Positions 4,158 through 16,551 are shown, numbered from the stretch's first letter. The stretch: 16,551 bases of DNA from a virus (IMGVR_UViG_2802429241_000002); one strand, 5' to 3'. The notes: generated by a model not told the origin, from the letters alone. Numbers and translations: made by a program.

Positions 4158-4173
4158 CATGTTCTCCACCTGC

Positions 4174-4197
4174 AAAAAAGCCCCGGATAACCGGGGC
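4174..4197 (-). terminator. intrinsic terminator-like hairpin between V and G (minus strand: GCCCCGG-UUAU-CCGGGGC followed by U6)
   Basis: Perfect 7-bp GC stem, 4-nt loop and T6 tract read directly from the sequence, 15 nt upstream of the G start. Confidence 0.6.
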
Positions 4198-4217
4198 AAA
4201 TGATGAGTATCGTCCTG

Positions 4218-4961
4218 TTAACCTGCGGCGCTGACAGCCACCGTAGCCACTGCCACAAAATCGCCGTCAGAAGTCATGCCCACAATGCTGACACTGCCCT
4301 GCTTCACGCCTTTCACCGTGGCCACAAGCCCGTTCAGGGTCACCGTGGCAGTCTGTGGATCTGTCGAATGCACACTGATCGCTTTGTCACTGGCTCCGTC
4401 AGGTTTTACTGTAAAGGTCAGCGTGGTGGTTGCTCCCACTTTTACACTGGCAGATGCCGGTGCCACCGTCAGCCCGGTAACGCCCACAGTTTCAGTGCCT
4501 TCCTCTGCCAGATACGGACGCCCCACACCGCTGATTTTCACTGTGCGGGTCATCACGTCTTTTGAGGCAATGGTTTTACCCAGTGAGCTCAGCCAGCCAC
4601 GGAAAACATCAACAGTGCCGTTGGGATATTTGATACGAAACGCGCAGACTTCACCGGAGTCGAACAACTGAACCAGTTTTTTCTGCCCGCTGTCACCCGG
4701 ACGCCAGGCCAGCGTCGCCGAAGTATCACCGACTGATTTCTGCCCCTGGGTTGTCGTTTTCCAGTCTGCATCTTCATCATCGAGATAAGTGTCATCTTCT
4801 GCATCAGCGGTCATTTCGCCAGGTTGCAGATCCTTCACCATCGCAAGACGCAGCCAGTCAGTGTCCGACAAAGGGTTCGCAAATGCGTCGCCGTTGCCGG
4901 TATACATCCAGAACGTCGTTCCCGCACCTTTCGTTTTTGCCAGTGGATTTGGTGTGGTCAT
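4218..4961 (-). CDS. V: major tail protein V (with C-terminal Ig-like domain)
   Basis: MTTPNPLAKTKGAGTTFWMYTGNGDAFANPLSDTDW... closely resembles lambda gpV ([36 protein letters not shown]...). Start at ATG 4961 with AAGGAGGTGG SD; the track's upstream extension to 5036 would overlap U. Confidence 0.93.
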   Translation of the reverse strand: MTTPNPLAKTKGAGTTFWMYTGNGDAFANPLSDTDWLRLAMVKDLQPGEMTADAEDDTYLDDEDADWKTTTQGQKSVGDTSATLAWRPGDSGQKKLVQLFDSGEVCAFRIKYPNGTVDVFRGWLSSLGKTIASKDVMTRTVKISGVGRPYLAEEGTETVGVTGLTVAPASASVKVGATTTLTFTVKPDGASDKAISVHSTDPQTATVTLNGLVATVKGVKQGSVSIVGMTSDGDFVAVATVAVSAAG

Positions 4962-13099: not shown

Positions 13100-13200
13100 T
13101 GATGACGAATGAAATTTCAAAAACTAGCCTTTTTCCGCGACGCTCCCGCCCCGTGGCAGGCCCCCCCTCCGGGAGGACCCGTCAGCCTGACAGCTCTGAC
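13100..13200 (-). other. candidate cos site (cosQ-cosN-cosB); putative cosN around 13140..13151
   Basis: Minus-strand sequence GACGGGTCCTCCCGGAGGGGGGGCCTGCCACG-GGGCGGGAGCGT-CGCGGAAAAAGG resembles my recollection of the lambda cos junction (GACGGGTCCTTTCCGGTGATCCGACAGGTTACG-GGGCGGCGACCT-CGCGGGTTTTCG); located upstream of Nu1 with an AT-rich cosB-like stretch between. Confidence 0.5.
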
Positions 13201-13604
13201 GAACGTCTGATACAACGCCCTGCATGAATGGCATCGGAATAATCCAGAAAGGCATAGCATCGTGCCCACAAGAATCTGTGTAAGTGTCCTGTTTCTTCCA
13301 TCCCCGCACAGGACTGGCGAGCATGAGGGGCAAACCCGCGAACCATAAACGCGCTAAAAACCCTGTGTGCATCGTTTTTGATTATTCCCGCACACTCGCG
13401 CAGAAGGAGTTCCCCGTCGGGCTACGGTCTCTGTTAATGGGGGAATACGGCGACGATACGGCGCACAGAAATAGATCAGAAATCTATTGCCCACAATCCA
13501 CATAAAGGCAATACATTGCATGAGCACAGGTAATCGCCTATGCTCATGTATTGGCATTCTTTTGCCGCCGGCGAATCTTCAGCGGATTATCCTTGGCCGG
13601 TTTT

Positions 13605-14712: not shown

Positions 14713-14973
14713 ATGGATTACACAAATCTACCAAAACAAACTTTTGCTGATTTAATCGCACTCAGGCAAGCAGTCGTAGCTCTAATCAACTTGTTGCCGG
14801 AGAAGGAAAAGGAATTAGTTAAAGCGCTTCTTAACAGAACTGCCGCCGATTTTTCATCATATCCACTGACAGATGACCTTGCGGACCTTCCTGAATTAAT
14901 TGCAGCGTCCGCCATTAAGCTTACTGAAGAGATTTACCCTCCTCAAAAATCTTCACAAAATTCCTGCGAGTAA
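14713..14973 (+). CDS. hypothetical protein (86 aa), plus-strand moron inserted in the lysis cassette
   Basis: ATG 14713 preceded by GAGGTG SD; AT-rich with rare codons (CTA, AGG, AGA); followed by a strong intrinsic terminator on the same strand. No recognisable family. Confidence 0.6.
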   Translation: MDYTNLPKQTFADLIALRQAVVALINLLPEKEKELVKALLNRTAADFSSYPLTDDLADLPELIAASAIKLTEEIYPPQKSSQNSCE

Positions 14974-15472
14974 CTTCAATGCAATAATCGTAAAACGCCG
15001 CAAACTGCTCATCGCGGCGTTTTTTTTCATCTTCAGAAGGAATAAGCACCGACAATTTTTTATTCAGATCAGCGACGCTGCCCTCCTGTTTTTCAATGAG
15101 CGATTCAATGTCATCTTTTTCTGACCGCAATGCCGTCGGTGGCGTCTTCAGAGAACCAGTAATTCTTCCCGGTAGCTTTCCTTTGTAGGTTATCCACACA
15201 TTCTGCGCCTCTAAAATTATGGGGCGCTTTTCCGGCGACTGCTCATCCCCTTCACATAACCCGGCAGCAACATCCAGGAATACCTGTCTGATTCTCATTC
15301 TGGCTGCTGCCTCATAAAACTCCAGTGCAGCACCTTCAACACGATCCATAGTGATATCCAGCTCAAAAATCTCACCGTCAAAGCGTTCTTTGTCCTGTAA
15401 GGCTAAAGTTACCGTAACTTTATGCTCAAAATTACGGACTCCTTTCACAACCAGTTCATAGTCTTGAGTCAT
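14921..15472 (-). CDS. hypothetical acidic protein (183 aa) between holin and endolysin
   Basis: ATG 15472 lies 4 nt after the holin stop with SD (GAGGAGAG) inside the holin 3' end, suggesting translational coupling; no TM segments or recognisable motifs. Confidence 0.65.
   Translation of the reverse strand: MTQDYELVVKGVRNFEHKVTVTLALQDKERFDGEIFELDITMDRVEGAALEFYEAAARMRIRQVFLDVAAGLCEGDEQSPEKRPIILEAQNVWITYKGKLPGRITGSLKTPPTALRSEKDDIESLIEKQEGSVADLNKKLSVLIPSEDEKKRRDEQFAAFYDYCIEVTRRNFVKIFEEGKSLQ
14992..15027 (+). terminator. intrinsic terminator for the plus-strand 86-aa gene (stem CGCCGC/GCGGCG followed by T8)
   Basis: GC-rich hairpin and T8 run read directly; lies inside the coding region of the convergent 183-aa minus-strand ORF. 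Confidence 0.65.
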
Positions 15473-15476
15473 TGGA

Positions 15477-15692
15477 TTACTCTCCTCTCGCAGCCTTACG
15501 CCTGTCTTCTTTAATCTTGAAATAAAGATTTGTCAGATACGTCAGCAGGCCAAAAACCAGGCTACCCAGCACACCGATTGCAGCCCACTGTGACGGAGTT
15601 ACTTTATCGAGTAACTGCAATGCCCAGAAACCAGCATTACCCGCCGATGTGCCATAGGCAACACCTGTTGTTAACTTATCCATTGATTTCAT
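15477..15692 (-). CDS. S: class II pinholin/antiholin (phage 21 S-like), dual-start MKSMDK
   Basis: [71 protein letters not shown] closely matches phage 21 S (two TMDs, C-terminal ...[13 protein letters not shown]) with the two in-frame starts 71/68. Confidence 0.92.
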
Positions 15693-15911
15693 ATCCTCAC
15701 CCCGATGTACACGGATGGTGCAATATGTTTGAAAATATCGGAGTCTACGGGGTAGTTTTTACAGCACACGTTGTTCTCAACGGCGCTAAAAAAACATACA
15801 CATTAAAAATGTGGTTAATTATTTTGAAAGAAAATCATATATTAATTAATAATACGAGAAATGTTTTCATATTTAGTGTACTGTATACGGCCATTTATAC
15901 AGGAAAAGCCT

Positions 15912-16082
15912 ATGTCAGAACGTAAAGACTCAAAATCACGCCGTAATTATCTCGTTAAATGTTCCTGCCCAAACTGCACCCAAGAGTCAGAACACAGTTT
16001 TTCAAGAGTACAAAAAGGTGCCCTTTTGATCTGCCCTCATTGCAACAAAGTATTCCAGACAAATCTTAAAGCTGTAGCCTGA
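15912..16082 (+). CDS. small zinc-ribbon protein (56 aa; CxCxxC ... CxxC), function unknown
   Basis: ATG 15912 with AGGA SD; MSERKDSKSRRNYLVKCSCPNCTQESEHSFSRVQKGALLICPHCNKVFQTNLKAVA; AT-rich upstream region. Possibly related to small prophage-encoded putative zinc-binding proteins of E. coli (from memory, unverified). Confidence 0.55.
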   Translation: MSERKDSKSRRNYLVKCSCPNCTQESEHSFSRVQKGALLICPHCNKVFQTNLKAVA

Positions 16083-16142
16083 TTGATTTTATTCGCAACA
16101 AGTATTTTTTTATATTTTAATAATATATTTAAAGCAGATAAT

Positions 16143-16165
16143 AAAAAACCCGCCTGAGCGGGTTT
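16143..16165. terminator. bidirectional intrinsic terminator (AAAAAACCCGC-CUGA-GCGGGUUU)
   Basis: Stem flanked by an A-run on one side and T-run on the other; the minus-strand reading gives stem + UUUUUUAUUAU (strong); the plus-strand T tract is weaker. Confidence 0.6.
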
Positions 16166-16446
16166 AATATTGTGGTGCTTTTTGTGAGAGTCATCCACTT
16201 ACGCACTTTGTTTTGCTATGCCAGCAGTTAGCTTCTGCTGTAAAACTATTCATGCAGCAAACCTGCACTTCACCACAATGGTTAGCATACTTTTCCTGAT
16301 TAAGTTATTACCAAATATGCTGGCCATTGTTTCATGTATTGGACCTCCTTACTCTTTATTAAAGAGATCCAATATTCACCACTCTGTCTGTATCTCCACT
16401 CAGGCATCAGCCTTCTTCGTTATCGTATACAGACAAACTATGAATT

Positions 16447-16551
16447 TTAATCATTAATGATGACATTTGCTGCTGCAGGACCTTTAGCACCACTCTCTAC
16501 AGAGAAGGTAACCTTTTGACCTTCAAATAAGGTTCGATAATTATCATTCTG
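16447..16551 (-). CDS. cold-shock protein (CspA family), C-terminal 34 codons (gene continues beyond window end)
   Basis: Minus-strand translation ...[34 protein letters not shown] matches the conserved C-terminal half of CspA-family proteins (CspA ...[37 protein letters not shown]). Confidence 0.85.

Follow-up and report, generated by a model that had tools for sequence, protein, structure and literature searches.

A small, basic, cysteine-rich protein is encoded just upstream of the holin gene S, on the opposite strand, in a 16,551-nt viral DNA stretch (IMGVR_UViG_2802429241_000002; the whole of this stretch is referred to here as the window). The question raised by this locus is whether the protein regulates the late and lysis genes beside which it is found or serves some other function. 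A regulatory role had been considered conceivable in an earlier note, made from the DNA alone, which pointed to the late-gene activators of the P2 Ogr family as an example of small phage zinc-ribbon proteins and placed the gene next to the entry point of the late operon.

The open reading frame (ORF) was present exactly as described in that note. It extends on the + strand from an ATG at 15912 to the end of a stop codon at 16082 (15912 to 16082; 56 aa plus stop), and the product, MSERKDSKSRRNYLVKCSCPNCTQESEHSFSRVQKGALLICPHCNKVFQTNLKAVA, has a basic N-terminus, ten Lys/Arg residues versus four Asp/Glu residues, and a CxCxxC...CxxC array of cysteines consisting of C17-x-C19-P-N-C22 and C41-P-H-C44, i.e., two CPxC knuckles. 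The product matched the PF23499 'YnfU' profile with an E value of 2.5e-31 (107.7 bits versus a cutoff of 27; positions 1 to 49 of the 49 in the profile) and the NCBIfam NF038384 'YnfU family zinc-binding protein' model with an E value of 7.9e-23 (79.8 bits versus a cutoff of 36). Both curated cutoffs were passed over the full length, and the protein exhibited the SEHSF motif, a spacing of about 18 residues between its CPxC knuckles and a length within the 50- to 60-aa range of the family. A 551-bp query around the ORF was present in 1,653 of 5,426 complete E. coli genomes at 95 to 99% identity, with a median of one copy per genome that was almost always chromosomal, and the RefSeq label under these matches was 'ynfU: putative zinc-binding protein YnfU'. 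The ORF list, the family profiles, the RefSeq position, the alignment and the dN/dS analysis described below all agree on this coding sequence, and the 56-codon ORF is ynfU, a genuine translated gene that is already known. A longer, 73-aa frame starting from an ATG at 15861 was rejected, as it contains the conserved −10-like block described below and has an N-terminal extension that is not conserved; furthermore, RefSeq annotates the 56-aa form and the same length is given in the literature. In several E. coli genomes the 551-bp region was split by IS1 or IS200C insertions, marking this AT-rich interval as a recurrent target for insertion sequences.

Conservation was assessed with 80 species-level loci taken from GTDB representative genomes. 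The ORF was intact in all 80, and the median pairwise dN/dS was 0.10 (44-codon core, 715 pairs with unsaturated synonymous change); ynfU is under strong purifying selection and goes far beyond a chance ORF. Residues that were invariant or nearly so in the family alignment were C19, P20, C22, S26-E-H-S-F30, R32, Q34-K-G36, L39, C41, P42, C44 and F48, with the invariant SEHSF motif located between the two knuckles and only a short, variable tail at the C-terminus. More distant homologues had kept CPxC...(S/A)EHS...RV.K...LICPxC..LF and lost C17, so that zinc is predicted to be held by the four cysteines C19, C22, C41 and C44. Very few sequences belong to the family: searching 1.84 billion cluster representatives exhaustively with an HMM produced 41 hits at an E value of ≤1e-3, all of which belonged to the same small family or were CxxC repeats, and no characterised family was linked to ynfU by this search.

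Published data demonstrate that the protein is made. Weaver et al. (bioRxiv 10.1101/511675) detected YnfU in uninduced K-12 by Ribo-RET, a form of ribosome profiling with stalled initiation, and confirmed it by western blotting of a chromosomal SPA-tagged version, the level of which exceeded that of all their other new small proteins; these authors also noted the pair of zinc knuckles and a 'moderate match' to the PhnA/YjdM ribbon. YnfU was independently detected by PIRT-seq (PMC12350097). A preprint (10.64898/2026.08.03.742565) grouped ynfU with the suf genes as up-regulated in lag-phase-like conditions. For genes found near ynfU in related loci, strong cold induction has been reported for YnfR, which adjoins cspI (PMC6001520), and the morons listed for the Tritos prophage of strain LF82 include CspB, CspI and YnfN (PMC9928086). 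Our literature search retrieved no functional study of YnfU, the mentions in work on silver nanoparticles and hypomagnetic fields being incidental, no paper with data on its abundance at low temperature or on its cold induction, and no report measuring its zinc binding.

The flanking DNA was examined for signals of expression. A well-placed Shine-Dalgarno (SD) sequence, as claimed in the earlier note, is present as AGGAA at 15901 to 15905 (+), extending as AGGAA(A) to 15906, at 5 to 6 nt before the ATG, and CAGGA was the most conserved block upstream of ynfU across genera. Three blocks were common to the upstream regions of 81 distinct loci, namely, rAGC(T/A)AT, then after 16 to 17 bp GTG-TAnnGT (usually TATGGT), and finally CCaTTa..AATCAGGA followed by the ATG. 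When aligned with the family-wide TAnnGT, TACTGT at 15879 to 15884 (+) emerged as a candidate −10 hexamer, and the TA and GT of this block were invariant or nearly so in alignments of 81 and 34 sequences. A candidate −35-region block, GAGAAAT at 15856 to 15862 (+), aligned with rAGC(T/A)AT at 16 to 17 bp upstream of the −10-like hexamer; this block is a poor match to TTGACA but is conserved. Judged from these blocks, transcription of ynfU would start near 15891 with a leader of about 20 nt. A consensus scan also detected a sigma-70-like alternative with 10 of 12 matches, consisting of TTGAAA, an 18-nt spacer and AATAAT at 15824 to 15853 (+); this site exhibited no conservation outside Escherichia, and the number of sites found by the scan was that expected from shuffled sequences.

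A perfect 7-bp inverted repeat, CTGTATA-N8-TATACAG, spans 15881 to 15902, overlapping the candidate −10 and +1 positions and ending at the SD sequence. The repeat is specific to the Escherichia lineage and could be an operator. It was rejected as a LexA box because inspection by eye indicated the wrong spacing, CTGT-N14-ACAG, the LexA consensus being CTGT-N8-ACAG. An RNA thermometer or leader hairpin at this repeat was also considered, and the idea was dropped because RNAalifold detected no consensus RNA structure in 34 upstream regions of ynfU. An Rfam scan of the whole window produced no hits and, with a conserved leader of only ∼20 to 30 nt and the RNAalifold result, no long structured 5′ UTR or cold box of the CspA type was found in the ynfU leader.

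On the other side of the gene, a terminator hairpin, AAACCCGC CTGA GCGGGTTT, is located at 16146 to 16165 and begins 64 nt after the ynfU stop codon. Its folding energy was −15.4 kcal/mol on the + strand (z score of −3.7) and −15.5 kcal/mol on the − strand, and no shuffled sequence was as good. The consensus terminator scan called this hairpin on the − strand only, where the T-run is better. A hairpin of the CCCGCCTG(A/C)GCGGG type is, however, also found 3′ of ynfU in Klebsiella in the absence of an opposing cspB and, in Klebsiella grimontii, the homologous hairpin has a good + strand T-run and is followed by a co-directional gene. Because the + strand hairpin is kept in this species, we read 16146 to 16165 as a bidirectional terminator that also serves the convergent cspB gene, and in this form the downstream terminator proposed earlier was upheld; the hairpin would end ynfU transcripts on the + strand and cspB transcripts that are not antiterminated on the − strand. 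Conservation of the terminator is partial, as a strict search for perfect hairpins 3′ of ynfU was positive in only 27 of 80 loci. A second terminator-like hairpin on the − strand is present at 16252 to 16268, within the 364-bp non-coding gap (16083 to 16446) that separates the convergent ynfU and cspB stop codons and in which Rfam finds nothing. With promoter-like blocks, an SD sequence and a hairpin terminator, ynfU is an independent transcription unit, of which the promoter itself is a candidate.

The setting of this unit in the window is that of a lambdoid late region. Holin gene S (class II, essQ/essD type; 15477 to 15692, −), identified from the ORF list and annotation, opens the lysis cassette and is divergent from ynfU, the two start codons being 219 bp apart; S provides only the context of ynfU and is no functional partner of it. 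It is followed by a DUF1327/YdfR-like gene, the lysozyme gene and Rz. The 3′ part of cspB, encoding a cold-shock protein of the CspA family, occupies 16447 to 16551 (−), is convergent with ynfU and is cut by the end of the window; it was recognized by reading of the sequence, by the annotation of the matching loci and by tblastn. The interval was correctly described beforehand as AT rich, the GC content being 0.32 to 0.34 between 15700 and 16200 versus 0.44 to 0.54 in the lysis genes. The YdfR-like gene (14921 to 15472, −), between S and lysozyme, has a 183-aa product in the window and in phage 2H10 and a 103-aa product in an E. coli locus (L001); as only the N-terminal ∼110 residues of the 183-aa protein match the Pfam domain, it has an uncharacterised C-terminal extension.

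In matching E. coli genomes, the gene order was ydfT(Q)-cspF-cspB-ynfU-essQ/essD-ydfR-rrrQ-rzpQ-cspI-ymcF-ynfR-ynfN-gnsB-terminase, and these loci are lambdoid prophages of the Qin type. The late genes are on the − strand and Q (ydfT), in the related loci, is ∼1.7 kb upstream of ynfU, in a part that lies beyond this window. There, Q is followed by a tR′-like terminator, cspF, cspB, ynfU and S, with cspF and ynfU running antisense to late transcription and cspB running in the sense direction. The location of ynfU beside the entry point of the late operon was, therefore, not borne out, Q and the tR′-like terminator lying further upstream beyond cspB and cspF, and this gene order indicates that ynfU is cargo in the Q-to-S interval. 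The same interval is occupied by stx in Stx phages.

Comparison with other phages located one edge of this cargo. Lambdoid phages PhiR40_1, PhiR55_1 and PhiR47_1 share S, R and Rz with the window and are without ynfU, and homology to them stops at ∼15704 to 15718, just upstream of the S start; we take this position, where the homology ends, to be the mosaic junction of a cspB-ynfU cargo module. A ynfU copy that is identical or 98% identical is present in 2H10, Tritos, HannyBb, PhiR63_1 and PhiR42_1, all of which are plaque-forming or induced phages. Phage records that list the gene call it a 'hypothetical protein' and the remaining records leave it unannotated; an identical, unannotated ORF is present, for example, in phage 2H10 (L083, NC_049950, equivalent of 4164 to 4331) and in Tritos (OV696610). 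The cspI-ymcF-ynfR-ynfN-gnsB block, which the closest relatives have between Rz and the small terminase gene, is absent here (window 13100 to 13600 compared with L002 16568 to 17628 and L083 402 to 1462), accounting for a length difference of ∼1.8 kb. In its place are two − strand ORFs, 13354 to 13557 (67 aa) and 13124 to 13372 (82 aa), for which no Pfam match was found.

A much broader pattern was detected when the surroundings of ynfU were compared across the 80 species loci. A cspB-, cspF- or cspI-type gene was located <500 bp from ynfU in 57 of these loci, and the figure rose to 61 of 80 when ymcF, ynfN and gnsB were included; a class II holin gene was found <1 kb from ynfU in only 8. The chance of a csp gene lying within 500 bp of a random gene, estimated rather than computed for a ∼5-Mb genome with a handful of csp genes, is well under 1%. 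More than 20 architectures were observed, such as ynfU convergent with cspB, ynfU with cspF following in tandem, or ynfU divergent from ynfN, ymcF-ynfN or cspI-ymcF-ynfN. A distant homologue with ∼40% identity (P0063) was likewise divergent from a CSD gene and, after it, a YmcF-like gene. Other distant homologues were solitary chromosomal genes, apart from one that a prophage carries between its Rz region and Nu1. In 17 of the 80 loci and in several distant homologues, no csp or other cold-cluster gene was present within 1.2 kb.

Outside Escherichia, the flanks were ordinary chromosomal genes save for a few prophages of Citrobacter, Superficieibacter and Yokenella. In Klebsiella and Raoultella, ynfU was flanked by 3-hydroxybutyrate dehydrogenase and by AlsR/BudR-acetolactate decarboxylase genes, in Kosakonia by fliE-fliF and in Atlantibacter by an aminobutyraldehyde dehydrogenase gene. 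Citrobacter meridianamericanus (L010, 3400 to 5600) has a ∼2.5-kb phage-free islet between purB and phoPQ, made up of a complete set of the cold-shock genes, namely, gnsB-ynfN-ymcF-cspI, ynfU, a cspB fragment and cspF, and a similar cold-shock islet adjoins thrS-infC-rplT in Kluyvera intermedia (L057). The linkage to csp genes and the phage-free chromosomal islets together place ynfU in a small mobile gene set associated with cold shock, and the differing insertion sites suggest that the islet is itself mobile or a recurrent prophage remnant. The set lies on both sides of the lysis cassette in the Qin/2H10-type phages and is contiguous and free of phage genes elsewhere. The data fit islets left behind by prophage decay as well as islets from which the phages acquired their cargo. 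Linkage of ynfU to csp can also partly reflect inheritance as a block rather than a shared function. Four contigs of the Enterobacteriaceae ynfU/csp type were filed in public records under Veillonella parvula (a metagenome-assembled genome [MAG]; L004), a Vagococcus sp. (L026), Kocuria sabuli (L040) and a Bacillota MAG (L042), and these are probably binning or assembly contaminants.

Searches for remote similarity were performed with the protein sequence and with a structural model. The AlphaFold2 model, built from a 26-sequence alignment, had a pLDDT of 62, i.e., low confidence, and has the topology of a zinc ribbon (strand, knuckle, strand, short helix, strand, knuckle, strand). No significant match was obtained when this model was compared with the PDB by Foldseek (best E value, 0.24), the best matches being archaeal ribosome-bound small zinc fingers and the zinc modules of thioredoxin-2 or Sirt2. 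A profile search of the PDB ranked yeast Tim15 (2e2z; E value of 0.012), ribosomal L44e (0.029) and the PhnA-like PA0128 (2akl; 0.48), none of which was significant. Scores for two Pfam families fell short of the cutoffs, namely, 22.4 bits versus a gathering score of 30.8 for the PhnA/YjdM N-terminal zinc ribbon (PF08274) and 13.4 bits versus 27 for the DNL-type zinc finger (PF05180), whose (H)LIADNL motif after the second CxxC is absent. No PHROGs family was matched at <1e-3, and PADLOC gave no hit. The Foldseek, PDB and Pfam matches are generic zinc-ribbon similarity and no more and, as the model is of low confidence and has no significant neighbour in fold or sequence, any binding partner named for YnfU is a guess.

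We lean, without great assurance, towards ynfU being a lysogen-expressed moron within a mobile cold-shock islet, with a product that binds RNA, the ribosome or a protein partner in a pathway of low temperature or growth transition. Several findings are those expected of a moron, namely, promoter-like blocks (the promoter being a candidate) together with a hairpin, phages that have the same S gene and no ynfU, a break in homology at ∼15704, and expression in uninduced K-12. The high level of YnfU in uninduced K-12, in which the Qin prophage is defective, points to moron behaviour rather than to a late-gene switch. Likewise, an autonomous unit that lies between Q and S in a lambdoid prophage of the Qin/2H10 type and runs against the late transcript would be a lysogen-expressed moron, arranged like bor of lambda. 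Its protein is predicted to hold one zinc ion through C19, C22, C41 and C44 and to expose an invariant SEHSFSRVQKG surface between the knuckles. The members of the islet (cspB, cspF, cspI, ymcF, ynfN, gnsB and ynfU) would be mobile as a set, and YnfU would serve the physiology of the host rather than phage development, most probably by acting in the pathway served by the neighbouring Csp paralogues via RNA, the ribosome or a protein partner. More tentatively, and in our judgment rather doubtfully, YnfU may work with the Csp paralogues on RNA or ribosomes in cold or growth transitions, making the islet a lysogenic-conversion cargo that confers a cold-fitness trait on its hosts.

Four other explanations were weighed against the moron reading. 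The suggestion of the earlier note, that YnfU regulates the late or lysis operon, could take the form of an Ogr-like activator or of a repressor or antisense-transcription brake on S. It draws on the position of the gene on the opposite strand with its start 219 bp from that of S, on a product that is small, basic and predicted to bind zinc, as Ogr is, on the opposition of ynfU transcription to late read-through transcription, and on the one distant homologue found in a prophage near lysis and terminase genes. Homology, however, led to the YnfU family and not to Ogr/Delta. PF04606, which in a control detected authentic P2 Ogr at 1.1e-21, was absent from the Pfam matches of YnfU (the best 25 of the 31 with an E value of ≤10), hhalign of the YnfU family alignment against P2 Ogr gave a probability of 1.4%, and the spacing of the cysteines differs. 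The weak association with holin genes (8 of 80 loci, versus 57 of 80 for csp), the occurrence of most family members in phage-free chromosomal contexts, the abundance of the protein in uninduced K-12 with its defective prophage, the ∼1.7-kb distance to Q and the presumptive pR′/tR′, and the existence of related phages with the same S gene entirely without ynfU also run against regulation. A late-gene regulatory role has, therefore, little in its favour, and we regard it as most improbable. What stands of the earlier interpretation is structural, i.e., a small, basic protein with two CPxC knuckles encoded by a gene with an SD sequence and a terminator that is divergent from S; its regulatory part does not.

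The sequence matches to zinc fingers raise the separate prospect of a DNL-type co-chaperone (Zim17/Tim15/Hep1-like) that binds and stabilises an Hsp70 such as DnaK or HscA/HscC. Tim15 was the best PDB match by sequence, with a common pattern of C..C...S.H..S....KG..LI.CPHC, and zf-DNL was among the weak Pfam matches (E value of 0.076), but both scores are below significance and the curated cutoff, the HLIADNL segment is missing after the second knuckle, no DNL fingers were recovered by Foldseek, and the generic ribbons L44e and PhnA score similarly, which leaves this reading very unlikely. A function in metal homeostasis, as a buffer or chaperone for zinc or iron, would fit the four conserved cysteines, the annotation as a 'putative zinc-binding protein' and the grouping with suf genes in the preprint mentioned above. 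That grouping is not a functional test; one structural zinc site in a ribbon of 56 aa typically serves as a scaffold and not as a buffer, the invariance of the non-ligand surface (SEHSF..RVQKG) speaks for a specific partner, and no genomic linkage to metal-uptake or Zur/Fur-regulated genes was observed in the loci compared, so that we give this function scant credence. Equally hard to credit is a prophage factor for defence, anti-defence or superinfection exclusion: morons adjoining lysis cassettes often have such a role and ynfU is expressed in the lysogen, whereas PADLOC and PHROG searches returned no hit and no significant match, respectively, and the family is widespread in phage-free chromosomal islets with csp genes.

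The gene itself is not new, having a RefSeq annotation, Pfam and NCBIfam families of its own and a protein product detected in K-12. What is new here is the comparative linkage to prophage-type csp genes across the Enterobacteriaceae, often together with ymcF and ynfN, which is a modest lead. The cluster occurs both as phage cargo flanking a lysis cassette and as phage-free islets at differing chromosomal sites. This linkage favours the idea of a cold-adaptation module carried by these temperate phages and provides an abundant, uncharacterised small protein with a cold-related lead.

Comparison with known systems places ynfU as follows. The predicted two-knuckle beta-hairpin topology and some of the local pattern would be shared with Tim15/Zim17, L44e/eL42, PhnA/YjdM and archaeal ribosome-bound fingers of the HVO_2753 type, but all of these matches fall below significance and below curated cutoffs, and family motifs such as DNL are absent. 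P2 Ogr and P4 Delta (PF04606) are, like YnfU, small phage-borne zinc proteins of the Cys4 type; they differ in spacing (CxxC-N22-CxxxxC in Ogr versus CxxC-N18-CxxC in YnfU), have no detectable homology to it and belong to P2/P4-like elements, whereas YnfU is encoded by a lambdoid prophage with a Q antiterminator and by a family found mostly outside phages. Proteins of the YmcF/YnfQ type (PF23641) resemble YnfU in being ∼60-aa CxxC...CxxC proteins of the same cold-shock islet, often encoded divergently adjacent to ynfU, but form an unrelated family (hhalign of the two family profiles, 2%), and cold induction has been reported for the YmcF/YnfQ cluster. With the bor/lom-type morons of lambda, ynfU shares an autonomous promoter-ORF-terminator arrangement, the promoter of ynfU being a candidate, within the late region and adjoining the lysis cassette, an orientation against late transcription, AT richness and expression from the uninduced prophage. 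The sequences are unrelated and, in contrast to the Bor lipoprotein, YnfU is of cytoplasmic type with no signal peptide or transmembrane segment. The closest counterpart is YnfU of the Qin prophage of K-12, from which there is no difference of substance beyond the lack, in this prophage, of the cspI-gnsB block that follows Rz in the closest relatives. It is the same gene, the protein of the window being 96 to 100% identical to the copies of E. coli, Shigella and Escherichia phages, with the same position between essQ/S and cspB, the same length and the same two CPxC knuckles.
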